Below are positions 8,401 through 38,100 of a stretch of DNA of 64,000 nt, piece by piece (positions within the stretch are counted from its first letter, which is position 1; each line of letters starts with the position of its first letter). This DNA comes from a virus, in the IMG/VR virus record IMGVR_UViG_3300050343_000163. One strand, given 5' to 3'. The notes beneath the pieces are model-generated. The model was not told where the DNA came from, did not search any database, and saw nothing but the letters and a program-made list of their open reading frames with translations. A program made the position numbers and the translations under genes.

Positions 8401-11400
8401 AATGATAGAGGAGATGCACCACGCTCAAACTCAATAATTGTTCCGAGAGGAATTGTTGCATTGACTGGGTTGTTTAGAGAGATCGTAGTTAGACCTGCTG
8501 CGGTAATAACACCAGTAATGTTTGTATTAGTCTGAATACCACTTACAGTATTCTTAACTTCATGACCAATAAGAACATCAGAGTTTGTAGTAAAGATCAT
8601 CTGAGATGATCCTGTAGTACACTGAGATGCCAATCTTGCAAAGTACCTGCTTTCTGCACCTTTGAGTGACTGCATTGCTAGTGCAAAGCTAGAATCACCT
8701 CTTAAGAATGTGAAGGAGTTTGCAGATCCACCAACAGCAAGTCTGTCTGTTTCAATAACACCAGATGTAATATCGGAAGCAGCAATCTGATTGGAAGATA
8801 GTGATACCCAGTTGTTAGCATCGAAGGAAGATGTATTTACAACTCTAGTAATGTTAACTGTATTAGCAGTAGGTGATGTACTATCATCAACAGTATCAGT
8901 ATCTTCTATCTTAATGTTGTTGACGATATCACCATATATTCTGCTCTCAATTAGAGCATTACCTTGTGCTTGTGTACCAGCTCCAGTAGGAGCAGCAAAT
9001 GTAATATTAGGAGCAGTAGTATATCCTTTACCACCTCGGAATCCACCAAAGTCATTAATAGTAACAGTAACAACTTGACCATTAGCAATAGTACAAGTAG
9101 CAGCTGCAGAAACTGCACCAGCTTCTGGGTTACCACCAGCAAATGTAACTACAGGAGCAACAGTATATCCAGAACCACCGTTACTAATATTAATTTGGAA
9201 TACAACACCTTTTCTATATTCAGTTGATTGAATGCGTCCAGTAGTTAAACTACCAGTAAGGATGTCACCGATGGTGAATGTTAAAGCAGGATCTGGGTTA
9301 AATCCAAGGAACAGACTATCATTATCATTGTTTAGAATGAATGATGTTGATGTATCCTGTTGAATTGCAATGTCACCAGCAAGTGCTCCTTCTAGTGCAG
9401 TTCTTTCTGTTTGGTTTGCAACAGTGAAGACACTGAATGGTCTGAGTGCTGGAATCTGATCAATAGAGATCTTACCAGAATCAGTAAGTTCAACCAATGC
9501 TCTAGGAACAGCGTTCGTAGAATATGGTTTGTTGATGTAAGGTCCTAAAGCATTAGTGATATAATCTTTAACTGCCTTTTGTGTAGGTAGTTTAGAATCA
9601 CTAGAGTTAGCACCACCAAGTGTGTTGGATGCGTCAAAACCAGTAACAACAACGTCACCACCTTTCAGTTTCAAGAATTCAACTTCAGAGATCGTAACCG
9701 TACCAGTGAAGGTAATGTTACCAGTTCTGTTTTCGATTCTAGCGAAAGTACCAACCTTAAAGTCACCAAGTTCATCAGTACCAGAAACATATACACGACC
9801 GTAGTTTTCAGATACCTGTTCGTATGCTTCGACTTTAGTACCACCGTTCTCAGGAAGAGCTAGGTAGTTAGTTCCTGAACCCGCAAATTCCCACGTATGA
9901 GAAGAAGAGTTAACAATCGATGGTCTGTGTAAGTTAATTGTTTTACCAGACAGAATACTGGTAGATACTGCCTGACCAGTTGCTATATCTGTAAGATCCA
10001 TGGCACCACCTGTGCCATCATCAATAGTTAATTGTGCAGAGAAAGGAGGACCAACTGTAACTCCAGCTACAACATCAACAAAGTATTCAATATCTACATT
10101 AGTGTTTCTATATCCATCAATCTTAACAACATAATGCTCTAATGGTTCTCTACCAAGTCCACTAAGTGTTAGGATAGTTCTACCAGTAGGAGTAGAAGAA
10201 ACATTTGAAATCGTTGCAATATCAAATGCATATGGGTCCTTACGGAAACCTATACCTCTTAATGCAAATGTACCAAAGTTGGTAGCAGAGTTAGTGATTG
10301 AGCAGTAACCACCAGATTCAGCAAGAACACCATCAGCACAGAAGATAACGAAGACAGAAACTAACTGAGTATAACCATCGTTGATAACCTTATATCCTGT
10401 ACCACCAAAAGATACAATCGTGAATGCAGATGCAACCATCGACTTACCCTGATTGGGGAAGGATGCTGTTCCGTCTAACTCAAGACCAGGGAATGGGCAG
10501 TTGGGTTGTTTAACCTTGGCACCATCAACCTCAGCACCGCCACCACCTAGGAAGGAGATAACAGATGCGTTCTGGGTGTATGGAGATGCCTCGATAATTG
10601 GATAGTCATCGTAATCACCACGAATTGCTAGTCTGTTGTTATTAGCATCAGAAACAAAGTTATCTGGATACGAAATAATTTGTGAAGTATCATATAGAGA
10701 ATTGCTAGTTCTAGATGTAGCACCAGAAAGAACTGTTCCATCTAAGATATCTTCAAAAAGATCCATAGATGTATTGATGGAAGAAGCAACGTTAGAACAT
10801 TGTGAAGTTTGTCCCGTGCTGTATACAAGTACAGAGTTGTTAGTTGTTCTAACAAATGTATGTGCAGATTGTGGTAAATGCTTGAGGCAATTAGTTGCAG
10901 CAGTTACGAATGTATGTGCAGATTGTGAAATCTGAGTAATTGATCCTGCAGCACCACTTACAAAAGTATGTGCTTCACCAGAAGCAGCACCACCAGCTCC
11001 TACGTTAACTGTAACAGTTCCAGTTTGTCTCTCGATACCATTAGCTAATGCACTTACAAAAGCATGTGTGCCTGTGTAAGAGGAAAGACCAGTATTAATT
11101 TCAAAAGTATCGGTAGTTACATTACTAATTTGTACCCATTTGTTACTCAACTTATCATAGTTGGCACGAGGATATGTTTTGTTTACTGAATTTCCATCCA
11201 GATCACAAGTAAAAGTTAGACTATCGTTAGCAATTTTTACATAATCTCCATTTGCAAAATTATGTCCAGCACTTGTTATAACTAACTTTCCACTAGATGC
11301 TGTGTAGACAGCATTGGTAGCTGTATGTTGACTAGAAGAAACTGCTGTGATATTTAAAGATGCACCTGAAGCGGGGTCAGATGGTCTTGGATATGTTTCT

Positions 11401-14400
11401 ACAGTTGTATTACCATCACCATTATAGTCACATGTAAATGCTAGAGAATTATCTAGAATTACAATTCCTTTATTAACATCAAGACCATGCTGAGTTCCAA
11501 GTTCTAGAACTAATTCACCAGTAGATGCATTGTAGGTAGTTCCTGTTTGTGCAGTAAGTAATTTATTTGCAGGAGATACACCTACGTTTAATGTAATAGT
11601 TGTATCACTTACACTATCGATAGGTATAGATCTCAATGCGTATGGGTCATGACCTGCTCTTGGATATGTTTTAGTAGCAGTATTTCCATCCATCGTACAT
11701 GTGAACGATAGACTATCAGTATCAAGTACAACACCTTCACCAATACTAAGTCCATGACCAGTACCAATAGTTAGAACCAGAGCACCTGTAGCAGGATCAT
11801 AAGTTGCATCACTTGGAGTCCACTGTTGATCAGGACCAGATACGCCAACATTAATTGTAAATGTATCTGCAGATGTTGATGTTACTGCCAGAGCATTGCC
11901 ATATGCAGTTTGACCAGATTGAGGTAAACTATGCTCAGTGGCATTACCGTCCATTGCACATGTAAATGTGAATGATTCTGGAGAAAGACTAATACTATTA
12001 CTTGTAGTAACACTATGACCTGTCACAGTCATTGTGAAATCACCATTAGCAGGATTATAGGTAGCTGTTGATGGTGTATGCTGTGCTATTGGAGCGCCTG
12101 CATTTGGATCTGGAAGAATATTCCAATCTTCAAATCTTGGAATAGGTGAAGTTAGTACAGTAGGATTGTAAACAATAATAGTTCCATCTGTTACTGCACT
12201 TACAAATGAATGTGATGAACCAGAAGCAGCTCCTGCATTACCAACGTTACAAGTAACTGTGGTGACACCACCAGAAGATTGAACATTAGTGATGGCATGA
12301 CTCTTGCCATAATTATCATCAGTTTTTAATGGACTTGAGTGTGTTCCAGTAACACTGTTATATGTACATTGGAAGGCAATTGCTTCTTCTTTAAATGCAA
12401 TTCTATCTCCTACATTAGGAGCAATGAGAGGATCAGGGAAGATTACCTCTAATGCACCAGTAGAAGCATTGTATGTTGCGTTAGTTGGAGTGAGATCAAC
12501 ATATGATCCATCAGTCCAGTTACGCATTGCTGCGATAGCATATGTTTTAGCTCTTTGATATGCAAAGATAGTTTCTGCTCTTTGTGCTTCTGGAATACCA
12601 GTTAAAGCAGTTTGTGTAAAGTAAGATTCGGCAGCTATAACAATATTCTCATTACCACCAAATGTTAAATCTTTTGCTAGATTACTTAGCGTAATACCAA
12701 GATCTCTTTTACATTTTCTTTCGTTTGTGTTATCAAGTGAGAATAATGGGAACTGACCTAATGTATCACGTAATGCTTGATCAGCAATTAGATACTTATT
12801 CCTTTCAATTAAGTATGCAGCATCCAGATAAGTTCCATTTTGATTCTTGGTAATAAGATCAACCCAAAGGAATGATAAAGTATCAATTGCAGATTTAACA
12901 TCAGCACAAGCTGGAGTACCCGCAGTTGCTGTGATGACTGTATCATCAAAGTATCTTGTTACAGAAGAATATACAGGAGAATAAATTGGATCTGATGGAG
13001 TACCGTCACCAGTTCTCCAGTTTCTCATTGCAAGGATACAAAGTTCTCGTGCATATTCAATCGCACGGAAGTTTTGAACAATTTCATCCTTGATGTATGC
13101 AATATCACCACCAAGAATATACTTCTTAGCTGCTTCAATAATGTTGAAGTTTGAACCAAATTCTAAATCTCTTACTAGAGCATTAACAAAGTGAATAACG
13201 TCTTGGCGGCATTGCTCATCACCGTCACTTCCTGTGTTATCTCCACTAGTTGGGGAACTATAAGAAGGGTAAGTTTTTTGACCAGCATCACAGGATAGTA
13301 GAATGTCTGCTAACTTAATGGTATCATCTTCTACTAAAGTTGATAAAGCAGAATCTACTGTGATAGTTGCATAACCTGTTATGATATTATCGTAACTAAA
13401 GTTAGTAATATTTACAGTTGTATTTTCAAATTTAACTGTACCACCAGAAACATAAGTATGAGTTACTGGAGTCTGACCTAAGAATACTTTAAATGTATCT
13501 CCACCACCAGTGATTTCAGATACCTGATAATAGTCTTTAGCAAATTGTCTATTGATTCTTCCTACAACTTCATCTGCAATAAACTCTCTGTTATTACGTA
13601 GGAATACACAAGCATCTTGGAATCTTCTTTCTACAGGAGTAGATAGAGGGAATGTGTTTGGTGAGTTTAGTAGTGATAGAGTAATTACTTTTGAAAAACT
13701 CTTAACAGTTGCAAATTGACCAGGATCTAAGTTAGCATCTGTGATAGATGGAACTTTTTTAGGAATTACAAATCTTCTGCAGCGACCATCTGCATCTTCT
13801 AAGACTTTATAAATTCTTTGCTTACCATTTAGAAGTGATAAGTCAGGGTTTGAAGTAGGAAGATTTTCAATTAAAATTTCCTGACCTTCTTTAAACTCGT
13901 GAGTATTTGTTCTACCAACTAGTGCGTTAGTATAGAAGACAACACCACCAAGATCTTCTGCATTACCAAACTGAGCATTTTGGAAACCACCTGTTGTAAT
14001 ACTTGGATCTCCTTGTAAAGAGAAATCAAGTCTAGAAATAGGTAGAGTTGTGGTGTAATCTTCATCTACTGCTACAACCTCACCTTCTGCTCGAATTGAT
14101 TTAATAGCAGTAGTGTCAATATTTTCAGTTTGTGCAGTAGCTTGATTGATTGCATATGTACCACCAACACCAGTTGCATCCCATGTGGGAGCATTTAGAA
14201 TTGGGAAGAATGTTACATCCCAAATATTACTTGCAGATTGCGTAGAATCAATCGCAGAAACTTCATAGAATCCTGTAAAAGCATTACCTGTGGATGGTGT
14301 TCCTACTAATTGTACTACTGTACCACCAGGAATAGTTCCAGTTGGATCTTGTGTAAATCGTAAAGTGTTTGGTCCCTGTTGACCAGTAATAGCAAGGTTG

Positions 14401-15956
14401 ATAGCACTACCTGCACCAGCAGATGTGATATATGAGAATTGCTCACCTTCAACAAAGGAACCAGATTGTAATTGGACATCAATTGTACCATTTACATATG
14501 CACTAGCACCTATTGTAGTTGCAAATTTAACGTCAAATATTTTTGCTCTAGAACCAGTGTTAACACCTTTTACAATTAAACCAGATACTAATGTAGCAAG
14601 ACCTGTATTGTTTTGGAAAGAAACACGGAACTGCTGTGGTCCAAAAATTTGATGACCAACTGGGAATGATGTACCAAAATCACCATTAGCTTCTCTGTCA
14701 ACGATAACTCTTTGCTTATCGTCAAAGACCATAGCAAAATCCCAAGTAGCAACTGCATCGCCATTGGAATCAATTTGGTCACGATAAGTAACACCAATTA
14801 CATAGTTCTTATCACCAAACTTAACAATGTGTTTGCCAGGATTAGCAGGACGAATGATGACCAAACGTAGGTTATCACCAACGATGGAAGAATCGGGTGG
14901 TAGTGAAATTGGGTTATCTTCTACATAATCACCACCAGATACAATAATAGTTTCTTTAACACCAGGCGTTTTCCATGCCTCTTGTGCTGCTTTTTTAATT
15001 GTTCTAACAGGGTTTACAGCAGATCGACCATCATTAAGGTCAGAACCAATCTGTTGTGAAACGTAAATACGACCACCAACGTCATTCGTTGCTAGGTTGA
15101 GGACGTATTCTGTAGTAGCAATCTTGTCTGATCTATCACCCAATAGAGGTGTAATAGATCTTGGGAATACACCAGAGTCTCCAGTATCATTATATCTAAA
15201 CTCATTTGGATCGTTGACGCGGAAACCAATGTGTTTGAAGTCAACATCACCGTTTTTGATGATACCATCAACGTGTTCTGGAGCTTCAGAACCAGTTTGA
15301 CCAGTGTTTAATGCTTGATAAACATTAGCTCCAAAATATCTGTAAGAATCTTTTTGTAGAATAACATTAGCAGACCATAAAATGCCTGTGTTATTCATGT
15401 AATTCTTCAGGTTTGGACCCCTGAAGTTAGCATCTGGAGTAATAAAGTTGTCAATATCTAGGTTTAGAATTCTTGCCGTATCAGAAATGATAGACGTAGA
15501 TGTTCTAATAGCACCATTAATATCAAGTTCATAATCAACAGTATCAAGGAAAGCAGTAGCAGTAGCACCAGAACCACCACCTTCAGAAATAGTAACAATT
15601 GGAGCAATGGTATATCCGCTGCCAGGATTATTAACAGCAATTGTAGTTACTTTGCCATTAAAAGTAAATGCGGAAGCAAGAGCTTGTATACCACCAGCAG
15701 CATTAGGAGGTCCGATAGTTACTGTTGGGTTTACAGTAAATCCACTACCTGCAGTGTCGAGAACGATATTATTAACTCTTTGCCCAGTTCGGTTAATACC
15801 GACACGGGGTAATTGCGTAGTAGAGTCTAACTCAGTTCGCAAGACTTCTTTTTCGTCTGCTCCTGTGCCAACTCTAATCGTGGCTTCATTATCACCGATA
15901 AGTTTAGGATTTACGCCCCTAATCTTTTCTTTATCGGAATTAATATGAAAACTCAT
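5478..15956 (-). CDS. Giant tail fibre/spike protein (3492 aa): beta-helix, phycobiliprotein-like helical domains, nested beta modules, fibre C-terminus
   Basis: RIYVSQQIGSDLNDGRS...VRTIKKA and SPYTQNAS...DGYTQLVSVF are pectate-lyase-like beta-helix motifs. Also GSGYT repeats, ADLLDG repeats, GIGTTTP-like fibre repeats and a C-terminal GPITINNNIVITVADGGSWNIV. Lies between gp8 and gp13. Confidence 0.85.
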   Translation of the reverse strand: MSFHINSDKEKIRGVNPKLIGDNEATIRVGTGADEKEVLRTELDSTTQLPRVGINRTGQRVNNIVLDTAGSGFTVNPTVTIGPPNAAGGIQALASAFTFNGKVTTIAVNNPGSGYTIAPIVTISEGGGSGATATAFLDTVDYELDINGAIRTSTSIISDTARILNLDIDNFITPDANFRGPNLKNYMNNTGILWSANVILQKDSYRYFGANVYQALNTGQTGSEAPEHVDGIIKNGDVDFKHIGFRVNDPNEFRYNDTGDSGVFPRSITPLLGDRSDKIATTEYVLNLATNDVGGRIYVSQQIGSDLNDGRSAVNPVRTIKKAAQEAWKTPGVKETIIVSGGDYVEDNPISLPPDSSIVGDNLRLVIIRPANPGKHIVKFGDKNYVIGVTYRDQIDSNGDAVATWDFAMVFDDKQRVIVDREANGDFGTSFPVGHQIFGPQQFRVSFQNNTGLATLVSGLIVKGVNTGSRAKIFDVKFATTIGASAYVNGTIDVQLQSGSFVEGEQFSYITSAGAGSAINLAITGQQGPNTLRFTQDPTGTIPGGTVVQLVGTPSTGNAFTGFYEVSAIDSTQSASNIWDVTFFPILNAPTWDATGVGGTYAINQATAQTENIDTTAIKSIRAEGEVVAVDEDYTTTLPISRLDFSLQGDPSITTGGFQNAQFGNAEDLGGVVFYTNALVGRTNTHEFKEGQEILIENLPTSNPDLSLLNGKQRIYKVLEDADGRCRRFVIPKKVPSITDANLDPGQFATVKSFSKVITLSLLNSPNTFPLSTPVERRFQDACVFLRNNREFIADEVVGRINRQFAKDYYQVSEITGGGDTFKVFLGQTPVTHTYVSGGTVKFENTTVNITNFSYDNIITGYATITVDSALSTLVEDDTIKLADILLSCDAGQKTYPSYSSPTSGDNTGSDGDEQCRQDVIHFVNALVRDLEFGSNFNIIEAAKKYILGGDIAYIKDEIVQNFRAIEYARELCILAMRNWRTGDGTPSDPIYSPVYSSVTRYFDDTVITATAGTPACADVKSAIDTLSFLWVDLITKNQNGTYLDAAYLIERNKYLIADQALRDTLGQFPLFSLDNTNERKCKRDLGITLSNLAKDLTFGGNENIVIAAESYFTQTALTGIPEAQRAETIFAYQRAKTYAIAAMRNWTDGSYVDLTPTNATYNASTGALEVIFPDPLIAPNVGDRIAFKEEAIAFQCTYNSVTGTHSSPLKTDDNYGKSHAITNVQSSGGVTTVTCNVGNAGAASGSSHSFVSAVTDGTIIVYNPTVLTSPIPRFEDWNILPDPNAGAPIAQHTPSTATYNPANGDFTMTVTGHSVTTSNSISLSPESFTFTCAMDGNATEHSLPQSGQTAYGNALAVTSTSADTFTINVGVSGPDQQWTPSDATYDPATGALVLTIGTGHGLSIGEGVVLDTDSLSFTCTMDGNTATKTYPRAGHDPYALRSIPIDSVSDTTITLNVGVSPANKLLTAQTGTTYNASTGELVLELGTQHGLDVNKGIVILDNSLAFTCDYNGDGNTTVETYPRPSDPASGASLNITAVSSSQHTATNAVYTASSGKLVITSAGHNFANGDYVKIANDSLTFTCDLDGNSVNKTYPRANYDKLSNKWVQISNVTTDTFEINTGLSSYTGTHAFVSALANGIERQTGTVTVNVGAGGAASGEAHTFVSGAAGSITQISQSAHTFVTAATNCLKHLPQSAHTFVRTTNNSVLVYSTGQTSQCSNVASSINTSMDLFEDILDGTVLSGATSRTSNSLYDTSQIISYPDNFVSDANNNRLAIRGDYDDYPIIEASPYTQNASVISFLGGGGAEVDGAKVKQPNCPFPGLELDGTASFPNQGKSMVASAFTIVSFGGTGYKVINDGYTQLVSVFVIFCADGVLAESGGYCSITNSATNFGTFALRGIGFRKDPYAFDIATISNVSSTPTGRTILTLSGLGREPLEHYVVKIDGYRNTNVDIEYFVDVVAGVTVGPPFSAQLTIDDGTGGAMDLTDIATGQAVSTSILSGKTINLHRPSIVNSSSHTWEFAGSGTNYLALPENGGTKVEAYEQVSENYGRVYVSGTDELGDFKVGTFARIENRTGNITFTGTVTISEVEFLKLKGGDVVVTGFDASNTLGGANSSDSKLPTQKAVKDYITNALGPYINKPYSTNAVPRALVELTDSGKISIDQIPALRPFSVFTVANQTERTALEGALAGDIAIQQDTSTSFILNNDNDSLFLGFNPDPALTFTIGDILTGSLTTGRIQSTEYRKGVVFQINISNGGSGYTVAPVVTFAGGNPEAGAVSAAATCTIANGQVVTVTINDFGGFRGGKGYTTAPNITFAAPTGAGTQAQGNALIESRIYGDIVNNIKIEDTDTVDDSTSPTANTVNITRVVNTSSFDANNWVSLSSNQIAASDITSGVIETDRLAVGGSANSFTFLRGDSSFALAMQSLKGAESRYFARLASQCTTGSSQMIFTTNSDVLIGHEVKNTVSGIQTNTNITGVITAAGLTTISLNNPVNATIPLGTIIEFERGASPLSFESTFTQGGFVDDVIISNAGSGYTNGQYFDVSLTGGTGTGLKVNIVVAGNVVTEITVTDGGTGYSSDFTVTSAPGVIGAGSSLVLESKVSTVNRQYANVSIDVQRVTDLTISADLYGTIGVSRYKKSQFNLGQAGNGSVELKTGADSGLDADLLDGVQGTFYLNASNMSAGTLSSDRLAGTYNIAISGTAGNTIRVLTGTNNPSSSPAPNNFSSGIVANTIFNSANGLTDGGTRNMTVTFRNGGSGFDAGFGGVRQLAFTDNDNMYLRGSGTGVGSFGTWAKVWTSLNDGLDSGLDADRLDNRQGTWYQNALNINEGTLSDNRLPRFISATNFRDNVSVKGFLGDPKFRIYFSGVILDTSATGVFAAGNPINLYNANAQAVGSFVIDSVVTNDDTADNFNDFTILIGRLNSGNFVGALTAGSASNRQPFDDFTLEDGNTVDVGKIVNNSGSGELRLGRTDGQSSSPAIYFRSSQLVSATPDDHYTAKFEAAGGNASLGSGTLALTVLNADAFTINGQKAWNEGNIQFSSANLGSYAVQRDSAGNFSAGTITASLTGAASLNVLKTGDTMTGSLVLTGAGSNLTVSGTATVNNTTTLTADLNVDNYTLFVDSSENKIGIGETVFTNRAGESYVKLRIRPSNFNSYGTVHGMDIAQFNGNWVDGSSGADSQFGLALTYNDTVRGGLLYDHRGSERMALWSSYGRIAFMVDPGRSGNEVPLTVGTEAMTIDYNGSVGISTSTPSSSFKLDVNGTSRFRNYVTLDSANDNSGAGMYFLGSSSQKNFRIGNQIGHSDAFEITASTAGGGQSWNGTPAFLVKGDNRIAINTNATSGTDPTNNQSRNYQLNVQGDINLNGQFFQNNQEFVTSRWTEASNGNDIYRLSKVGVKKQDPTYDLHVLGSTNIEGQTFVNQANTSVLYANGVRQWIDSYGIFKANSQVVAENITVPNGTNCGSFGPITINNNIVITVADGGSWNIV

Positions 15957-15991
15957 GGTGTTCCCGTGCTTTTGACTTTTTTCCTATTCTA

Positions 15992-15998
15992 TATTTAG
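15992..15998 (-). promoter_or_regulatory. Late promoter variant CTAAATA
   Basis: Plus strand tatttag in the 45-nt gap upstream of the 3492-aa gene. Confidence 0.65.
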
Positions 15999-16000
15999 CA

Positions 16001-16501
16001 TCAAGCCCATGCAATACTGATAACTTCTGTGGATGAAACCCACTTAATAGTTGCAGTTGTACCAGCTCTTACTGTGTTATAGCTAAAAACGTTTGTTCCA
16101 CCAGTAGGTTCAATCCCCCAAGTTTCACCTGTAGGAATATCATCTTTAATTACTGTTTGGAAACTAGACATAATATTTACATTTCCTGATCCATCACATG
16201 AGACCGCAGTCTCAAATTTGACAGCATATACAGTTCCTGAATCATTAACTGCAATGATGTTTCCTGTGACAAAATTTAAAGTAGAATTTGCAATAGGAAT
16301 TTTTGTTCCTAATCCATCCAAGTCAAGAGTAGAGGTGTTAAGACCTCGTAAAATATAACGAGTTTGTGAACTATCTGTGAAATGCCTGTTCTTTACTTCT
16401 AGAGTATTAAAATCTTTTGCATTTCTTTCTTCATCAACAATAACAGTTTTGCCGATAGCAAATCCACCTTTAGAATCAAATTTTTCGGTTGTAGTTGCCA
16501 T
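16001..16501 (-). CDS. Small virion structural protein
   Basis: 166-aa beta-rich ORF coupled to the 1795-aa gene. Confidence 0.75.
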   Translation of the reverse strand: MATTTEKFDSKGGFAIGKTVIVDEERNAKDFNTLEVKNRHFTDSSQTRYILRGLNTSTLDLDGLGTKIPIANSTLNFVTGNIIAVNDSGTVYAVKFETAVSCDGSGNVNIMSSFQTVIKDDIPTGETWGIEPTGGTNVFSYNTVRAGTTATIKWVSSTEVISIAWA

Positions 16502-16503
16502 TT

Positions 16504-19500
16504 TTATTTCTTAGTAATAGTAGATACGATAGTGATCTCGATTTGATGACCAGTGGTGAGGTCTGATCCAACTGTAAAATTGATTCTAGCAAAGTTGCCA
16601 GATGTTCTTTCAAAAGTAGGGACAATTAGTTGTTGTCCTGTTCTGACATTACCATACTCTGTATGGAAGATGTCTGTTCCATTATCTATAATACCAAACT
16701 CAAAGAATTCTCTATCATTATTATTTAAGTTCTCAGCAACTACAACTGTCTTAGCTCCTACCGCTGCTTGAGCATCGTAGATATCAGATCCACTGGAGTT
16801 TGCAGAACCTTTTGTTAGAGTTACTTTTTCTGTCAAGATCTTAGTGTCTGCAAGTTCAAACTCTTTGAGATCTCCATCAAAAACTTTTACTCCAGTAAAG
16901 TTACCTGTACCAAATGAGGTATTGAAATAAACATCACCTTGATTGTCAAGTCTAAGAACTGGGTCAACTGATAAACCACCTGAAAGACCTAAGTCAAAAT
17001 ATTGCTTACTGGTATGTAAGAATGTTCTATCTGTTTGAGTATTATCAAGAGTTGTTTCAGCATTATCAAATGTCATCAAGCTTGCTGTAATTTCAAACTC
17101 GCTAGATGTGCTTGAGATAATAGTATCTACGCTGTAGAATTCAAGTGCGGATGCGGTAAGACGCATCGTATTTGTTCCATCATTGTAGAAGTATAATATG
17201 TTTTCGTTTGCACCAGGTGCAGTTTCGGGAATAATATAAGTGTTTTGATCAACGTCTTTTACTCCACCAAGAGAACCCCAGTTGGTTCCGTCATATCCTT
17301 CAAACTGACCAGCAGTTGTATTGAATCTAACACCACCCTGTATTACTGAACCTCTGTCTGCATCAGAACCAGATGGAAGTGCTAAACTGGTATTTGTATT
17401 ACATACAATTTTCTTACCAGAGTTTGGTTGTAAAGTAATATCATTAAGATCTGTAGAGATAATGTTATCTCTAAGTCTTAAATCTCCATTGATTACTAAA
17501 GGAGAAGAACCTAATGGATCTAATCTAATTTCTTCAACGTCAACAAATGTTAGAGGACCAACTGCAAGACCCCAGAAAGTTAATGTGCAGCTACCATTAG
17601 TTACAGCACCACTTGTATGTGTAGGTTCATTACCACTTGTAGCAGTGTTACCTGCTACTGTAACTTCGTATAAATTATTTTTGTGCTTTAGATATGCACC
17701 AACTAGTACAGGTGCATTAGCAATCCAATCTGTAAATGCTGGAGCAGATGTATTTGCAGACTTGATAGTCTTATTAGTTCTAAACTCTAATTCATTTGGT
17801 GTAAATTTAACAGTATTAGATCCATCATTGTAGAACCAAAGTGTGTTATCATTAGAACCAATTGAAAGTTCTGCAGTAATGTAAGTATTACCATCTAGAT
17901 CTCTAATACCACCAAGTGAAGACCAAGAAGAGGAAGAAGCACTATAACCTTCATATTGATTACTATCTGTGTTATATCTGATCGATCCATTTTCTGCGGC
18001 ACTAGCACCAGGACGTTGTGCAGATGTACCAGCAGGAATGTTGATAGAACCAAAACCAGTAACTTTGGTGACCTTACCAGTAGGTGCAGTTAGAACTAGG
18101 TCACTACCAGCATCGGTAGAAATAACATTATTCTCAATAGTTATTTTGTCATTGATATTTAATTTATCTGTAGTCTTAAGTTCACCCGAAGTAAGAACGT
18201 TACCGTCTGCCTGAGTAACAGTCAATCCACCAACTGTAAAGTCTGCAGTAGACTCTACAGAAGTTCCTGTTAAAGTAAGAGCAGCATCTGAAGTAATTAA
18301 TGGAGTTGTAACGCTAGTGGTTGCTGCAACAGTTGTAGAAGAAACATCAGGAGCACTGAGAGTATCAATAGTACCTTCAGTAGCTTTAATATCAGCAACA
18401 GTTACCTCACCAGTAAGAACTTCCATTGTGACGATATTCACAGATGAAATATCCGTAGCTCTTAGAATTAATCCACTACCAAATACTTTAGGATTATTTG
18501 GATCAATGGTGATTAATGCTTCTTGATTATCTTCACCACCTTCATTTTCATGACCAATACCAGAATTACAGAAATAGTAAAGGTTTGGAGTTACAGAAGT
18601 AACAGTTAGATCGAGATAGTCATTACCTTTCTCTACACCATCAGTATATTCAACACCAGAGAAATTAACAACCACAGCACCTGCTGTAGTTGGAAGAAGA
18701 GAAACAGTTACTTGAGTAGCACTATCAATAGAAACAACTCTTGTATCAGATGCTAATACACCAGCACCGCTAACAGTTGAAACAAGCATTCCTTCTACAA
18801 TTCCTGTAGTGGATGCCACGGTTAGAGTATAACTAGCTACATCTAATGTTGTGCTAACATTCTCTACTAAACTTGGAGCATATGGTCCGTCTCTAAATTC
18901 ACTAAGAGCAAATTGGTGACCAGATACACTGTTATCACTCAAATCAAATCTATAAGTGTTACCAACATAAATTGTCCACGATGGAGTAATTTGTGGTCCA
19001 GATCCAACGTCAATTAAGAATCTAAATTCAAGAACAGATGCTGTATCAACTGTATATTGTGTTCCAGCAGCACCAGTCTTAACAAATGTATTTCCAGAAG
19101 TAAATAAAGTTGCTTGATCTACTTCAATTAAGATAGTAGAAATATTACCACTGCCATCTAAAGCAATATCTACAATTGTAACTGGGGTGGCAACATTTAC
19201 GGTGTCTGCTGTAATTGTAATATCATCTGCAGGCGTAGCTCCACCAATTAAGTTACCAGCAATAGTTAAAGTATCACTATTAGAGTATCCTAGACCAGCA
19301 GCATTGAGAGTTACGCCAATAATTAAACCATTGGTGCTTCTCTCTACATCAAATGTTGCACCACTACCACCACCAGCAGATGTTGATGCAACACCAGTAA
19401 ATGATCCCTGCTCATCTGATGTGAATGTTAGGTTGATACTAGCAGTTTGAAGGAATGCAGCAGATAGTGTTACTTGAGTTGCACTATCAACAGATGCAAC

Positions 19501-21891: not shown

Positions 21892-22084
21892 TTTTTATTA
21901 ATCCGTGCAGTAGTGATTTGAGTTCAGAGACTTCATTCTTCAATGTATTTATGTCGTCCAATGCGGAACTTAACTGCATAGATTTCCTTCTTGCAGCTAT
22001 AGCAGAATCGTCCAAATTCAAGATGGCACCAGTGTTTTGGTCTCTTACGAGACCATCATGTCCATCAACTTTTACAAAGTCCAT
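21878..22084 (-). CDS. Small conserved cyanomyovirus protein
   Basis: MDFVKVDGHDGLVRDQNTGAILN plus a C-terminal coiled coil. A similar gene is recalled after vrlC-like genes in these phages. Confidence 0.8.
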   Translation of the reverse strand: MDFVKVDGHDGLVRDQNTGAILNLDDSAIAARRKSMQLSSALDDINTLKNEVSELKSLLHGLIKNASN

Positions 22085-22093
22085 ATGCGGAAA

Positions 22094-30181: not shown

Positions 30182-30216
30182 CGTACTCCGCCAATAATAC
30201 TAGTATTCTCGTTGAA

Positions 30217-30223
30217 GTATTTA
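30217..30223 (-). promoter_or_regulatory. Late promoter variant CTAAATA
   Basis: Plus strand tatttag in the gp8-vrlC intergenic gap (approximate coordinates). Confidence 0.55.
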
Positions 30224-30242
30224 GCGAAGTAACCAAAGAGTA

Positions 30243-32057
30243 TCAGAACTCAATTACTAACTTGATGTCTTCAATCTGGTCAGGAGCACGAGTGATTAGT
30301 CTTCTGTTCTCAACATAAATCACGTTACCAGAGTTATTTTCAATCTCTGGGTTAGCTAGACCACTTGCAAAAGTGACACCTAGTAGTGTAGAACCATAAG
30401 AAGTATCTACATTACCAGAAGCAGTAGAACTCTCTCCAGTAACAGCATTAGAACCATTAGATTCAAATGCTTGTACAATACCTTGATCGGTATGTGCATC
30501 AGAAGTTTGGATGTACTTCAGAACACCAGCAGTTGTAGAACCACTATCAAGTGTCCATGATACAACTGTACCATATGCTGTACCACCAGTTACAGTCTGA
30601 GTAATTTTTTCGTCAACGGCATAGTCTGCAGAAGCACCAGTAATCTTAATAGATTTTAGACCAGAAAGAGTATCAGCGGTTGCAAAAGTTGTAGTGCCAT
30701 AGTTATATGGATCAGCAACAATACCAATACGACGGAAGTCGTTATCTACAGGGAAGTCACCTTGACCTTCAGAGTAAGTAAGGCGGATGTTTGTCATAAC
30801 ACGCTTACCATTGAGTTCTGTCTCATGATCAGAACCATGTCCACCTGCGGGAGCAAGAACAACTTCAATAGCACCAACAGCAGAAGCACCAGTTGCTACA
30901 GCAGATGATAAACCAGCATTAGAGAAGAGGTTGCCGTTAGTGAATAGAACGTTAGCATAAGTGTAACCTGATCCACGAGCTTCAATCTCAGCGGATGTGA
31001 TTGCACCTGCACCATTTGTTACAAACTTAACTTTACCACCAGATCCATCACCCTTAATAGAGGTGTAGAGAGTCTGGGAAGCAGGAAGACCAGAACCAGC
31101 GTTTTCAACTAAAGCAACATCAATAGCACCAGCAGTAGCAAGAGCTGCAACTGCTTGTCTAGAAACATTGTTAGAAAGAACGATTGGCATGAAGTCAGAA
31201 GAAAGGAACTTCAGAACATCATCGGTAGGAATGGTGTACATATACTTCCAAATGTAACCAGCACCAGTTGTCTCAGTATAGAGACCAGTAGCAGAAGCAT
31301 AGTTGCCACCTGCAGTAGATGGTTCTTCAGTTGCGTTTTGTCCAGTTGTGTTAGAAGGATCTTCACCATTGTAAAGACACTTAAATACTTCGTAAGTTGA
31401 GTTCATTACATAGAACTTAGCATCTGCGATGCTTGCAGCACCTGTTGCAGCTTGCTTACCGATTTGACCACCGCCACCAGGTGTAGCAGAGTAATCGGGT
31501 TTAAACATGTCGAACTTGGGGTTAGCTACCAAGTCCCAGTTGTAACGACGAATAACAGTTCTAGCAAATGAATCTGTGATACGCTTTGCAGCGATCATTT
31601 CATCGTACAATGAATACTTTTCTGTTTGGTTGTCTAGAGGAAGGGGTGGAACATCTTCAGTAGCGTAGCGATATACACCAGAAACTGCAGTGGCACCTGT
31701 GTCGGATCCGCCAGAACCACCACTTCTACCTTTTAAAGCAGAACCAAGAGGGGGAGCAGAGTTAACGCCAGCACTTCCAAAAACGTCGGTAAGAAGTAGG
31801 GCACTATCATAAACTGCAGCAACTGTGGCGCGGAAAGCGGTGGAACCATACGTTCCAACATACACTTCGTTACCAACTACAAACGCGGTTGAATTTTGTG
31901 TGTGAACCTCTACGTATGCTTTCCATGGTTGTGGGCGTCCCACAAAGAAGTACATTCTAGAGCGTTCCGCACTGGTATCGTTAGGACCTTCGGTTAACGA
32001 TTCTAAAAATTGTTTAGCATTGAAAATCCTAAACTTATCAGAGATAATAGCAGCCAT
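30243..32057 (-). CDS. gp8: Baseplate wedge subunit gp8
   Basis: MAAIISDKFRIFNA, MYFFVGRPQPW, MIAAKRI, YIWKYMYTIP, DFRRIGIV, YVENRRLITRAPDQIEDIKLVIEF. Confidence 0.92.
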   Translation of the reverse strand: MAAIISDKFRIFNAKQFLESLTEGPNDTSAERSRMYFFVGRPQPWKAYVEVHTQNSTAFVVGNEVYVGTYGSTAFRATVAAVYDSALLLTDVFGSAGVNSAPPLGSALKGRSGGSGGSDTGATAVSGVYRYATEDVPPLPLDNQTEKYSLYDEMIAAKRITDSFARTVIRRYNWDLVANPKFDMFKPDYSATPGGGGQIGKQAATGAASIADAKFYVMNSTYEVFKCLYNGEDPSNTTGQNATEEPSTAGGNYASATGLYTETTGAGYIWKYMYTIPTDDVLKFLSSDFMPIVLSNNVSRQAVAALATAGAIDVALVENAGSGLPASQTLYTSIKGDGSGGKVKFVTNGAGAITSAEIEARGSGYTYANVLFTNGNLFSNAGLSSAVATGASAVGAIEVVLAPAGGHGSDHETELNGKRVMTNIRLTYSEGQGDFPVDNDFRRIGIVADPYNYGTTTFATADTLSGLKSIKITGASADYAVDEKITQTVTGGTAYGTVVSWTLDSGSTTAGVLKYIQTSDAHTDQGIVQAFESNGSNAVTGESSTASGNVDTSYGSTLLGVTFASGLANPEIENNSGNVIYVENRRLITRAPDQIEDIKLVIEF

Positions 32058-32093
32058 TGTTTTTCTGTTCCGACGTAGTGTTTGTGCCTGAGT

Positions 32094-32107
32094 TATTTAT
32101 ATTTATA
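32094..32107 (-). promoter_or_regulatory. Two overlapping canonical T4 late promoters TATAAATA
   Basis: Plus strand tatttata at 32094-32101 and 32100-32107, and a third ATAAATA at 32112-32118, upstream of gp8. Confidence 0.8.
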
Positions 32108-32114
32108 GCAATAT

Positions 32115-35100
32115 TTATGTAATTGCGAACGGAATCAACTCATCCCCGTTTGATATTGAGTTACTACCTCTTATTAGAGTGCATCCATCAAAGGTATTAG
32201 CAGTCTTAGATGCATATTGAATTACTGATCCACTCGAAGTGAATAGGTAACCAGCATTATCAAAGTATGCAGTATTTAGCGCAGCAATGCTGGTAGGTAT
32301 CGTACCAACAGTGGTAGTTGTTGTAACTGGTTGTTGGATTGAAGGAGGTGCAAGATTAAATTTATCACCAGCAGATGTATATTGAGATTTTCTTCTCTTA
32401 GTAAAATCATCAAGAGTTAAACCACCAAAGAACCTTGATACTTCTTCAATAGTCATACCAGATACTCCCATGCCATCATCAAAAATGCCATCAAAGTGAC
32501 CGATAGTATATCCAACGTTAGTGATAGCATAGTTTCCAATATACCCACTATCAGTAGTAAAGAGTGTGTTTCTAACTAGTTGCTCATTTCCATTTCTTTG
32601 AGTGACATAATATTTGTCTGCTGCGGAAACAAGGAATACACCAGAACCAACTCTTTGTGCAATTGGATTAGTCAAGAATGCAGTTTCTTGATATTTGTCA
32701 ACTACACCACCTGGTGGAGGAGTAATAACAACCTCAGTAGCTTCTCTTGTTACTGACATTACAGAGGCAGGAGAAATCTGTCTCTGTACTCTCCTTTCAA
32801 ATCCACCTGCAGTAGATGATGCACTCACCATACTAACATCAGATTCAGATTGGATAGAAGCAACAGCAGCAGATACAACTGCTATATCTTCAATCTGTCT
32901 TAGATATGCACCAGCAGCCCAGAATTGTTCTGTGGTGTTATCATAACCTCTAATGACTTGTAAGAATCTATCATTGATTTTTCTATTATAGAATACAAGT
33001 TCATTACCAATCATTAGTTTGCCATTAGGAGCAAACTTAGTTGTATCAGGAATGTATACAATACTGTCACCAATTTCCAGATCAACATTCAAGTATGCAG
33101 CATTCTCAAAGTAATTGGTATTACTGATTGCATTATTAGGAATTTCTACTTGAACTGTAGTAGTAATTGCTTTAGAAACAGTTGAAATAGAATTTGTAGT
33201 TATAATATCCTGCAATTCTGCAGATACTACTGTTCCACCAGCATATACATCTATGACTTTAACATCATCAGCTGATGTTTCTTCTGTTGAGAAGAATTCA
33301 ATATAATCTCGTTTTGGATCTAAAGCACCACCAATAGAGAATACCTCAACTTCCTTGAGATCAAATTCTCTTTCAATAACAATCTCGGCATCACCTGCAA
33401 CTTCTACTTGTACAGAACTAATACCAGTAATAGCAGAAAGACCAGACTCATCAATTTCACTGATAACAGATGTAGATGTCAATCCACCACTTTCAACATA
33501 TGGGTTAATACCAATGTTGATTAGTGAAACACCAATGTCTCTTTCTTTGAGAATATCAAATCTTCTGGTTGTAATAACCTTAGGTGTGGTAGTATAACCA
33601 GAACCACCATCGATTAGATCGACACTGATTACCTGACCTTTACTTACAAGAACGTTAGCTCTTGCACCACCACCATTACCATCCAGTGACTCAAACTTAA
33701 GAACTGGTGGTGTATAATATTGATATGCAGTTGGTTGTGTGAGTGGATCATAACTGCGTTGATTCCATGTTAAAGATATTACAGATCCATTTTCAATAGT
33801 TGCTACTACAGATAAACCTTCACCTCTCGTAATTCCAGTATAAGTCTCAATTGAGACTGTACCAAAAATATCATCAGTAGTTGCTTCTCCACTTCTACCA
33901 TCTTTACTGGTAGCTTCTGTAGGAAGTCTCTTAATATTTCTAAATCCCTCTTCACCTTCTACTCTGATCTTATCATTGTTAGCAAGATATACAAATGGTG
34001 CTTTATATGTTTTGCCATAGAATGTTCCAGACCACTGTCCGTTATCATCTTTGAGTAGTTTTCTATTTGCTTCGTCTTTCTTGAAGGTTAGTGTTTGATT
34101 ACTAATGTCTCCATCAGCAATGACATATGTTCGATCATAATATCCCTTAACAGTAAAGGTAAAGTCTAAACCGCTTTCTATGACAGGGTTTTGACACTTA
34201 AGTTCAAATGTAACATTGTTGCCTGTTTTGATTGGATTCTTAAGTTCACCAATAACATTATATGTTCCATTAGCTCTTTGTTGCCAACAATGAATAGGTG
34301 TTCCAATTGCATCACCCATCCAACCATATGCTAGTAAGTTATCTAGAATAGGTGTGGAAGTTGTGAAAGATAATGTTCCTTGTGCAAAATATGTATCAGG
34401 AGCAAAATCATATATGTTAAGAACCTGTCCAACATCTCTACCATAAAGATATCTGATATCAACGTTATGTTCTTTCTTAATAGGACTAGCAAATGTAATA
34501 TTAGGACCAGATACAGTATATGCTTTTCCTTTTACTTGTAGAATACCATCTAAGAAAACATACATGCTGTCTTCAGATTCAATACTCTGTACGGTGTAAT
34601 CTTCTACATCTAAAATTAAGAAGGGACCATTTCTAATACCGTCTACCAAATTAAAGTCGATAGTGAGTCTCTTATAATTACCAACTCCAATACCAACTAC
34701 TTTTTCAACAGCAGTTGGTTCACCAATAGATTTTGCACCTAGATCTTGGTCCCAAATAGGAGCTACGTCAAATTTAACTTTGTTAGGAATTACAGTTCTA
34801 TCAATCCAATAAGCATCCTGCAATGGATAGTTATCAGTAAACTTAGGTCTTTGTAATATAGCATTAATAGTAACAAATAGATCTTCATCTTCTTCTGTGT
34901 TTACAGGAGTATTATCATCCCAATACAATTCAAATTCTTTGTTTTCACCATCAATATAATCTGGAAGTGATCTTGTTACAGATTCTTCTTTAATAACATC
35001 ATCTAAGTTATCAAATAATGAATCCATTGCAGAAATTACAATTGTGCATTCTTCTACAGGAAGTAAAGGATCACCAAGGATATTATAGTTAGAGTAACTT

Positions 35101-38100
35101 AAATCTTTTGTCCAGTTACCAGCCTTATTAGAATTTTGCTTTGTTTTCTCTACAAGTCCTCTACCTTCTGTTAGGATAGTATTAACAATATCATGATAGG
35201 TGTTTAATGTGCTTTCTACTTCTGCACATACAGGAGAGATTGAGTCGATCAATACATTGGGATCTGTACCAGGCAATTGATTTCTCATTGCTTGAATTGC
35301 TAGATCTCTAGTATATTCAAATGTCGATATAGTTTCAGTTAATTGACCAGAGATGTAATATAACTCTTCACCATATGGATAATCCTTTTGCTGATAGTAA
35401 AGCTGTGCTGCCTCAACAATTTTTTCATTTCCACCAAATTTAAGATGGTAGACATATGCGTCTAGAATAAGACCGATGTCTCTACCACACTTAGTAGCAA
35501 TAGATCCCCAGTTCAATGCAGGATATTGTGCTTGTGCCCAAGTTAGTGATTCTGATATGATATATGATCTGTTGAGTGCAATGAGTTGTCCTGCTTTATA
35601 GAACATACCAATGCTTTGACCACTCCAAGAGAATGCTGCTTGTGTAGTGCCAGAGAAAGATACAGGTGTTGTGACAGTTACGCCAGGTGGTACAGTAAAA
35701 GTATTGCCAGGAGCAACTGCACCAGTATTTGTGGCAATAGATCCAGTGGTTGCTGTGCCACTTAGTAAAGTGGTTCCACTAGGAGCACCACCACCTCCAC
35801 CAGAGTTAGCTAGTGCTGCATTGTTTAATGTAATCTGAGTATCACTGTCAATAGATAGAATTTTTGTTCCTACAGGGAATGCTCTACCAGAACTTACAAA
35901 TAAACCAATAGCAAGATTTTTAGTGCTACTAACTGTCATTGTAGTAGACCCTTGGACATAACTGATGTTTACATCAATCCAATCCCAGTTTCTGATAGCA
36001 AGTTTTGCCAATCTAGTTGCATATTCAAAAATAGCAATAGATTTTGTTTTATTGTTTTGAATATAAAGGTATTCATCATCAGAATTAAAGATAGCAGAAT
36101 AATCAATTGTTTTTACATTTCCACCAAATCTTAAATCATGCTGATATGCATCTAAGATAGCTCGTATGTTTCTTTCATAGTCATCTTGCTTAGTCGCCCA
36201 ATCTAAAGATCCATAAGTTGATTTACCATATCCAATAGTTTCATTAATAATGAAGTCAACATTTCTCTCAATTTGATTTGCAGCATCAATCCATGTGCCA
36301 CCACGTTGGAAAATGTTTCTTAACTTTTTGAGATAACGAGTATTGTATTGTGCATCCTTGAATTGGAATACTTTACCATAGAAAGTAACACCTTTATAAT
36401 CAGAACCAAATTTAACTCCATCTCCTAAAGGTGGAGTAGAGAATGTAATCTGATCACCAGAGATTGTATATGCAACACCTGGTTCTTGAATCACACCGTC
36501 TAAAGTGATAATAGTACCATATGTTGATGATAGAGTAAATGGATTGCCACCAACTAATACTTGGAACTGTGTAGTTCCTTGTAATCTACCATCTGTATCA
36601 AAGTATCCATCAAATGCTGATGCAAGAGATAGTTCAAATGTACGAACTTCGTTGAATAGAAATTCACTTGGAGCAGCAGTACCAACCGCTTTACGAATTC
36701 TTTGATTCTCAACTGTTTGTACAGTTTGAGTAACAATTCTACTTGTGTTCTCAACAGTAATTTTATTCTTTGCTGGATCCCATAATTGAATAACACTAAA
36801 GTGTGATGCCTTTGGCATCTCAACTGGCATCTCAGAACTTGCAGTAGCTTCTACATCTACTTGTCCAAATAACTTAAATCCTGCAGGGTGTGTAGTGGAT
36901 TTAATAAGGTCACGCCATTCTTCAATAGATGTCTTAGATTTAACAACATAAGAATAATCTTGATAGAAAGAACTATCATGAATCTTCTGATTAGATACAC
37001 CTAACTTACCTTTGTCTGATGTGTAGTATCCTAAGTTGTCATAGAAACTAGAAATATTTTCTTGGAAGGTAGAAACAAATACTTTACTAACAATTGCATC
37101 TATTGGGAATCTTAAAGACTCAATAGAAATATTCTCACGAATAATACCTTGTACATTTGCAAGTTTAAGTAAGTTAGAACTAAATCTCCATTCTGTAACA
37201 GTTGCTCTGAATACTTCTACATTATTAATTTTTTGAATTACAGTTTCACCAATACTAAAGTTACCATTGATGTTTCTAACAGCAACAATGTAGTTTGAAC
37301 TGAAAGTAGAAGATACAGTTTTGTCTAGATGGAATGCTCCACCGTTTCTGGTAATATTAACACTCTTAGGAACACCAATAGATGTGCTCTCTGCATATGC
37401 TTCTACATCACCCTCAATAATAATGATTTCAGGTGCAAATGTATATCCTTTACCAATTTTGTCTACTGTAATAGAGGCAATTTCACCATTTCTAGAAATA
37501 ACATTAAACTTAGCATCAGAACCATCACCATTAGTAATAAAGACTTTTGGGTTTACATAATTAGAACCTTTCTCGGTAATCTCTACACCAGTGATAGTTT
37601 TTGTTGCAACATCAAATTTAACTGTAGCTTCTGCTCTATAACTTGCAGTTGGGTCTACACCAATAATAACAGGTACTTTCTTATAGTTAAGTCCTAGGTT
37701 TATAATCTGTGCGGTATTAATTTTACCGATAGCGAACTGACCAGTAGTGGTATAAGAAATAGATCCAGAACCATCCCAAAGAGGAATGCTGTTAATATCA
37801 TAAACAAAACGATTTGGTGTAACATAATTAAGAATTTTAGTTCCCTGTAAAGGATCTGTGATAATCTTGAAAAATGCGTTTTCTGAATCAACTACATTCT
37901 TTTTGTCAAAGTAATAGAAGTTAGTAAAATCAGTTCCTCTCTTTGTCTGATAGTTATTATCAGTTAGTCTAGAACCAAATCCAAATTTAACATCAGTAAA
38001 TGCACCAGCATTACCAGGAAGAATAGTAGATTCTATTTTTTCCTCAGTAATCAAATTGTAGTTATTACTTGGACTGATATCAAAGTAAGTCCCAATAAGA

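Follow-up and report, generated by a model that had tools for sequence, protein, structure and literature searches.

Whether the bilin enzymes encoded by phages could act on the phage particle itself is the question raised by a 64,000-nucleotide stretch of viral DNA (IMG/VR virus record IMGVR_UViG_3300050343_000163; the whole stretch is referred to as the window), in which two giant proteins hold four copies, A to D, of a helical domain. The first-pass annotation of this DNA had proposed that the copies are biliprotein domains of the virion serving as acceptors for phage-encoded bilin enzymes. The four domains are genuine globins of the family of phycobiliproteins and bilin biosynthesis-associated globins (BBAGs) with the bilin-site residues aligned, and it is somewhat probable, judging from sequence, that they are bilin-binding domains in the gp7-like baseplate protein and the giant fiber with the Cys84-type cysteine forming the bilin thioether.

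Copies of the domain were gathered at 200 IMG/VR loci, and an alignment of 147 diverse members, which share 15-61% identity with copy D, served as a profile. Searching this profile against all Protein Data Bank (PDB) sequences gives 52 matches at E ≤ 10, 48 of which are phycobiliproteins. The top match is the α subunit of C-phycocyanin (CpcA; E 1.8e-4) in an alignment over helices B and E that places the phage residues K-C-x-R-D-x-G...G-G-N on K-Cys84-A-Arg86-Asp87-I-G...G-G-T (G102-G103). Taken singly, 38 of the 147 copies match the phycobiliprotein family PF00502 (best 2.3e-6), and the next family is matched by 4. The AlphaFold2 model of copy D calculated on this alignment has a predicted local distance difference test score (pLDDT) of 90.5 and a predicted template modeling score of 0.87 and shows the all-α globin-type fold of the phycobiliprotein family (helices A, B, E, F, G and H). 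Foldseek with this model returns named phycobiliproteins in 36 of the 37 matches listed (ranks 1-50; template modeling scores 0.46-0.70), the remaining match among those listed being an unnamed bacterial fluorescent protein (8u0f_C). In the VIA ranking of the same model phycoerythrin comes first (Z 15.3; root mean square deviation 2.2 over 142 amino acids), with far-red allophycocyanin at 13.9, the ApcE bilin domain at 13.7, and other globin-fold proteins at no more than 12.6. The N-terminal X-Y hairpin of antenna subunits is absent, as the alignments begin at phycobiliprotein residue 27-35 and the model opens with the helix-A equivalent, and the domains are therefore filed in the bilin-binding globin family and not as canonical antenna subunits. 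Searching the two window proteins whole against Pfam gives no PF00502 match in either P0001 or P0004, and for P0001 no family at E ≤ 0.1. The array proteins P0012, P0063, P0067 and P0130 give only a sub-threshold PF00502 match, and the ESM Atlas contains weak, unnamed neighbors only.

The bilin-site residues are strongly conserved beyond the window. A profile search of 1.84 billion representatives yields 1158 clusters, many of them giant proteins, with up to 35 copies each, and in a set of 1524 copies, drawn from 150 unrelated giant proteins, the site retains Cys in 96%, Arg in 94% and Asp in 98%. The near-invariant profile columns are N19, C47, D50, D61 and Y77. Apart from the site-84 column, Cys never exceeds 7% in any profile column, exactly one Cys is present in 634 of 870 full copies, and tandem arrays carry one Cys per ~140-amino acid unit, so that this lone near-invariant residue has no intradomain disulfide partner. 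In phycobiliproteins and in the lyase-independent BBAG-1 and BBAG-3, bilin is bound covalently at the CXRD motif (PMC10151467). A tblastn search of 50,697 cultured-phage records finds the domain in cyanophages only (242 and 251 records), and scanning 185,579 prokaryote genomes for the motif gives 12 true loci, all on contigs of metagenome-assembled genomes (MAGs) of assorted taxa, with no domain locus in cyanobacterial genomes. Domain-bearing contigs are far more numerous in IMG/VR, and CheckV completeness suggests that most of them come from phages of 200-400 kb. In the 8-copy array protein P0067, residues 876-967 match the ends of proteins annotated as tail fiber, endosialidase or major tail protein (P-SSM2, S-PRM1 and others), and this sequence match suggests that the arrays may be tail fibers with a shared C-terminal module. 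Stepwise decay of the motif is seen in one orthologous lineage of giant proteins of 6000-7300 amino acids from Syn19, Syn9, P-SSM7, P-SSM4 and P-SSM3 (L322, L330, L331, L329, L335), where C-x-R-D passes to C-E-D-D or C-K-T-D and then to a site with no Cys.

In the window itself a hidden Markov model (HMM) made from the four copies gives exactly four matches in six-frame translation, and the copies are homologous by BLASTP from copy D (Table 1). Copies A and B lie in the giant fiber protein P0001 and copies C and D in the gp7-like P0004. Copy A has its first helices at P0001 ~775-808, separated by an insert of ~100 amino acids from a core at 905-1043. In copy B the putative closing segment follows ~540 amino acids of inserted β modules, a putative nested-insertion architecture as in the gp7-like protein. 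This segment has a likeness to the helix-H segments of the other copies (C-[SA]-x-V-x-S). Strands of the β modules recur in P0001 as ...T-F-T-C...G-N...K-T-Y-P-R... and H-[ST]-F-V-[ST]-A. Copy D is complete and uninterrupted and, together with a β domain, is inserted between helix G of copy C and its closing helix in a model of the nested pair of moderate confidence (pLDDT 74). A single globin-fold match spans residues 6..448 of this model, which fits copy C enclosing copy D, and the β-rich insert matches β domains of phage tail tubes and tailspikes (Z 6-9). The cysteine assignments of the first-pass annotation are confirmed residue by residue, a Cys84-like site being kept in three of the four copies and replaced by Tyr2071 in copy C, and a helix-H Cys being present in all four (PAC, SQC, PVC, EEC). 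The strict C-x-R-D motif of helix E is found in two of the four, B and D. The models place C2388 and C2448 inside the opening turn of the final helix.

Table 1. Position of the domain copies, their cysteines and the surrounding genes in the window (aa, amino acids; ORF, open reading frame)
Feature	Window position	Strand	Basis or remark
P0001, giant fiber protein, 3492 aa	5478..15956	-	ORF list and translation; copies A and B within
Putative closing helix-H segment of copy B, Cys1720 (SQC)	10722..10823	-	Read from sequence
Helix-H codon C1720 (SQC)	10797-10799
Repeated β modules, ~540 residues, P0001 ~1175-1711	10824-12434	-	Between copy B helix G and putative closing helix
Copy B core, P0001 1048-1174	12435..12815	-	BLASTP to D 5e-16; HMM 168 bits
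Copy B site 84, Cys1082	12711-12713		K-C-K-R-D
Copy A	12828..13634	-	BLASTP to D 2e-13; HMM match P0001 919-1043
Helix-H codon C1017 (PAC)	12906-12908
Copy A site 84, Cys916	13209-13211		C-R-Q-D
P0003, 2695 aa	22094-30181	-	DUF4815 (9.4e-49); between fiber genes and gp8
gp8	30243-32057	-	Phage-Gp8, 5.4e-12; directly downstream of P0004
P0004, gp7-like giant baseplate protein, 3424 aa	32115..42389	-	YHYH 3.7e-29, Baseplate_wedge 1.9e-5; copies C and D within
Closing helix of copy C, P0004 ~2445-2467, Cys2448 (EEC), after copy D	34989..35057	-	Nested-model helix 421-443
Helix-H codon C2448 (EEC)	35046-35048
Copy D, P0004 2258-2410	35160..35618	-	AlphaFold2 model, Foldseek, VIA
Helix-H codon C2388 (PVC)	35226-35228
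Copy D site 84, Cys2301	35487-35489		K-C-G-R-D
β-rich insert between copy C helix G and copy D	35628..35984	-	Strands at nested-model residues 112-230
Copy C core, P0004 2028-2149	35943..36308	-	BLASTP to D 3e-19; HMM 179 bits
Copy C site 84, Tyr2071			Y-E-R-N, no Cys
YHYH domain (PF14240), P0004 728-856	39822-40208	-	Within the gp7-like protein

The distribution of bilin genes was compared with that of the domain in jumbo phages and in cyanomyovirus isolates. Three of five long domain-bearing IMG/VR records carry psbA, and the two psbA-less records (G001, 364 kb and 100% complete; G002, 328 kb and 92% complete), both without CpeT, have adjacent and overlapping genes for a heme oxygenase and an FDBR (ferredoxin-dependent bilin reductase). 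The FDBR of G001 is PcyX (PDB 5OWG, E 5e-68), and the globin domain of that genome lies >200 kb from the two genes. A further record, G011 (96% complete), has the domain together with PcyX; the searches for heme oxygenase, psbA and CpeT covered G001 and G002. PcyX relatives occur on 376 IMG/VR contigs, and a census starting from PcyX, covering the 18 longest of the best 80 contigs, finds the domain in all 6 that are at least 30% complete (2-14 copies, in ORFs of 376-3385 amino acids, most >2000) and in 2 of the 12 shorter fragments. Domain and PcyX also occur together on a 335-kb MAG contig binned as Neomarinimicrobiota (G067:C57); two MAG bins with FDBR matches on contigs other than the domain contigs were left out of the co-occurrence. 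Another 43 domain-bearing contigs, fragments of 12-52% completeness that are too incomplete to inform, contain no FDBR or psbA match, and pmoC was not found in the jumbo phages, the control genomes giving no match either. The BBAG-type combination of globin, heme oxygenase and FDBR in one genome is thus found among jumbo phages and is not general in cyanomyoviruses. Genes of the ho1 and pcyX type are known from large freshwater phages of methanotrophs (bioRxiv 10.1101/2020.02.13.942896), and the purpose of hemO with pcyA or pcyX in phages of non-cyanobacterial hosts has been called enigmatic, with BBAGs mentioned only speculatively (PMC11480375). The first-pass annotation had named equal Cys conservation in phages of non-phototrophic hosts as part of the evidence that would speak against a bilin link. 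To the letter this is so, as Cys-conserved copies do occur in psbA-less phages, but as those phages carry a bilin pathway of their own the link is strengthened, not refuted.

Two side observations concern the same genomes. The heme oxygenase-PcyX pair of G001 (L215:4280-11264) and G002 (L216:6641-10166) lies among genes for HSP20, HSP70 (DnaK-like, 3.5e-261), CsgG and CsgF, and curli-secretion components such as the last two are unusual in a phage genome. In G004 (G004:C1:171043-171916, behind L164) the psbA match falls into three consecutive pieces with internal TGA and TAG, and this psbA is either interrupted (intron-bearing) or broken.

The census of isolates covers 18 complete cyanomyovirus genomes, in 10 of which heme oxygenase was checked. 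Domain and CpeT occur together in 13 (S-WAM2, P-HM1, S-PM2, Syn19, S-RIM8, S-CAM7, S-RSM4, P-SSM4, Syn9, P-RSM4, P-RSM1, P-SSM3 and MED4-213), the domain without CpeT in 2 (P-SSM7 and S-SKS1), CpeT without the domain in none, and neither in 3 (P-SSM2, S-SSM7 and P-TIM68). This distribution (13/2/0/3) gives a one-sided Fisher p of 0.012 that is not corrected for phylogeny. The data fit a rule, drawn from few complete genomes, under which phages of bilin-making hosts need no synthesis genes and psbA-less phages with the domain always encode synthesis.

In the proposed mechanism the Cys84-type cysteine of copies B and D, and perhaps A, would form a thioether with phycoerythrobilin (PEB) or phycocyanobilin (PCB) during assembly in the infected cell. 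A lyase could assist the attachment, or it could be autocatalytic, a mode published for both BBAGs and ApcE. The pigment would be that of the host pool or, in hosts that make none, the product of a phage heme oxygenase and bilin reductase. For the cyanomyovirus lineage the β-155-like cysteine at the start of helix H would be a possible further site for phage CpeT. The released virion would bear covalently bound pigment in its host-recognition apparatus, and the most attractive use of that pigment would be light sensing or response at adsorption.

A rather unlikely alternative is that of an exapted scaffold, in which the globin fold is a rigid spacer or oligomerization module without chromophore, the bilin genes act only on the antennae of the host or on the metabolism of iron and heme, and co-occurrence reflects shared ancestry. 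Several observations weigh against bilin binding, and a number of them favor such a scaffold. The domain outlives destruction of its site: the copy C site is Tyr in 78 of 78 sequences, at site 84 of copy D 67 of 77 orthologues have Cys and 10 have Tyr, the Syn9/Syn19/P-SSM7 giant-protein lineage has lost the Arg (C-E-D-D, C-K-T-D), and in P-SSM4 and P-SSM3 the Cys is lost from all three copies, none of which has either cysteine, though both phages retain cpeT and an FDBR (PF05996, strong score). Because the site is lost in these two phages while fold and cpeT stay, the fold has a structural role that outlasts loss of the site and cpeT is not solely there to serve it. Arrays of up to 35 units and the tolerance of large insertions are also in keeping with a structural repeat. 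In the isolates the presence of an FDBR is unrelated to the domain (7/8/2/1, p 1.0), P-SSM2 and S-SSM7 having an FDBR without the domain and P-SSM2 having PebS together with HO1, and in the complete, psbA-positive G003 the domain is present but the three bilin gene families are all missing. Few independent events underlie the co-occurrence, as the IMG/VR PcyX genes, compared with one another, are 73-100% identical and so essentially one lineage and the three double-negative isolates may be one clade. The window's own copies fall below the Pfam threshold with no Pfam match at E ≤ 1, and a single-sequence phmmer search of copy D against the PDB gives nothing at E ≤ 10. BBAGs have been reported to be photoinert (PMC10151467), and published accounts place pebS, ho1 and cpeT in the light harvesting of the host (PMC11480375, PMC2984593). 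A purely structural module, on the other hand, gives no reason for a lone Cys with Arg and Asp to be held at 94-98% across 1524 diverged copies of 15-60% identity, and it leaves the purpose of the complete heme-to-PEB pathway in psbA-less jumbo phages unexplained. The link to bilin genes drawn in the first-pass annotation holds in part. It is borne out across phages by heme oxygenase and PcyX in the psbA-less jumbo phages, by the domain on PcyX contigs at least 30% complete (6/6) and by the confinement of cpeT to isolates with the domain, and it is unsupported or weakened for the FDBR of isolates and for P-SSM4 and P-SSM3, where cpeT persists beside copies that have lost the acceptor Cys.

It is very unlikely that the site instead binds another ligand, whether biliverdin or heme held non-covalently or a metal held through the Cys, in place of a PEB or PCB thioether. 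Heme is bound by globin-fold relatives and biliverdin by BBAG-2, and the C-x-Q-D of copy A is the photoglobin-type motif mentioned in the same paper (PMC10151467), but the site aligns with the thioether Cys and the bilin-contacting Arg and Asp of phycobiliproteins, no conserved His appears among the near-invariant columns, and the co-occurring enzyme PcyX is a PEB synthase.

The helix-H cysteine is a lineage-specific feature with <7% Cys at this position across the family, common in the copies of S-PM2, S-RSM4, S-WAM2 and Syn9 and absent in the jumbo-phage copies examined. Phycobiliprotein β subunits have a second attachment Cys (β-153/155) in the G-H loop before helix H that is served by a T-type lyase. 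The helix-H segments of the window are presumably like the β-155 region, with a Cys directly before helix H in the pattern C-S/A-x-V/L-x-S, a likeness drawn by position and motif. The earlier argument against a disulfide between Cys84 and the helix-H Cys stands, as the copy lacking Cys84 keeps its helix-H Cys. In the nested pair the helix-H cysteines C2388 and C2448 could equally form a disulfide with each other, and a structural role, in which these residues of copy D and of the closing helix of copy C form a disulfide or staple the interlocked domains with CpeT uninvolved, is a tentative possibility. Both are invariant in the gp7 lineage (77 gp7 orthologues; 78/78 sequences) and always occur together, whereas Cys84 of copy D varies, and each stands where one of two consecutive terminal helices of the interlocked domains begins. 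Such a role also agrees with the family-wide absence of this cysteine and with its untidy relation to cpeT, S-SKS1 and G003 having a helix-H Cys without cpeT and several cpeT-positive phages having one in only one of three copies. The presumed resemblance to the β-155 region and the standing of β subunits as top fold matches speak for an attachment site instead, and in P0001 copies A and B each have a helix-H Cys though they are not nested in one another.

Light-dependent adsorption is a phenotype on which a pigmented virion could bear. Liu et al. found that P-HM1 and P-HM2 fail to adsorb in the dark and that P-SSM2 and the podovirus P-SSP7 adsorb (PMC6628666), and the light-dependent adsorption of S-PM2 is independent of host photosynthesis, for which light-sensitive receptors or tail fibers have been suggested (PMC6628666; see also PMC2984593). 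The domain is present in P-HM1, P-HM2 and S-PM2, with C-x-R-D read in the copies of P-HM1 and S-PM2, and no domain copy was found in P-SSM2 or P-SSP7. The comparison over these five phages agrees with a role of the domain in adsorption but has a p of 0.1 and proves nothing. It is considered improbable that adsorption is gated by a bilin of the virion that acts in baseplate and fibers as photoreceptor or light-responsive element. If true, such gating would explain both the cyanomyovirus adsorption that depends on light with no need of host photosynthesis and the heme-to-PEB pathway of psbA-less jumbo phages.

The surroundings of the four copies identify where in the particle they would be placed. 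All large genes of the window are on the minus strand and together form a T4-like virion block in the ORF list. Because P0004 is gp7-like, has a Baseplate_wedge match and adjoins gp8, the proteins bearing the four domains are assigned from sequence as virion proteins (baseplate and fiber) of a T4-like marine cyanophage. The window's own sequence was found neither by megablast in the phage collection nor as an exact 50-mer in viral or metagenome contigs. The closest cultured-phage relatives are Synechococcus and Prochlorococcus myoviruses, in which the homologous stretch is annotated as gp7 baseplate wedge initiator, tail fiber or structural protein. P0001 has a β-helix-like region broken up by inserted domains, and between it and gp8 lie a 1795-amino acid protein and then the DUF4815 protein P0003. 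One cyanophage homologue of the region neighboring P0003 is annotated as VrlC.

A conserved bilin-site globin domain in host-recognition proteins provides a concrete candidate acceptor for the phage bilin genes ho1, pebS, pcyA, pcyX and cpeT. If bilin binding by these domains is true, the virion would become the first phage particle with a pigment, and the phycobiliprotein family would gain a new branch beyond photosynthesis. A candidate mechanism would then be available for the light-dependent adsorption and the diel rhythms of infection seen in viruses of the ocean's most abundant phototrophs. In the literature searched no paper describes phycobiliprotein-like domains in phage structural proteins or proposes a virion bilin acceptor.

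Among known systems the phage hemO-pcyX cassette and CpeT are the enzymes that the bilin-binding hypothesis ties to the domain, and their literature roles are host antenna maintenance or iron supply, with an enigmatic role for non-cyanobacterial hosts (PMC11480375). The phycobiliproteins (PF00502; CpcA/B, CpeA/B, ApcA/B) share with the phage domain a globin-type fold of ~140 residues, the best profile and fold matches, the aligned Cys84-Arg86-Asp87 and the G-G turn after helix E, and the window lineage adds a Cys before helix H that is presumably placed like β-155. They differ in that the phage domains have no X-Y hairpin, carry large insertions in the G-H loop and extra invariant N19, D61 and Y77, and sit inside virion proteins of 3400 amino acids, either nested or repeated in arrays of as many as 35, and not as free α and β subunits. 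The BBAGs (Rockwell, Martin, Lagarias 2023, PMC10151467) are CXRD phycobiliprotein paralogues accompanied by heme oxygenase and FDBR in non-photosynthetic lineages with lyase-free attachment, the same logic as heme oxygenase and PcyX with CXRD globin domains in the jumbo phages. BBAGs belong to bacterial gene clusters and are small proteins of the cytoplasm, whereas the phage globin is a repeated extracellular virion module, and the two are likened by description and not by sequence comparison. The ApcE bilin domain is similar in having a phycobiliprotein fold within a large multidomain protein, an inserted loop and autocatalytic bilin attachment; it differs in occurring once per protein as a part of the phycobilisome. 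The bilin of ApcE is attached at a different cysteine.

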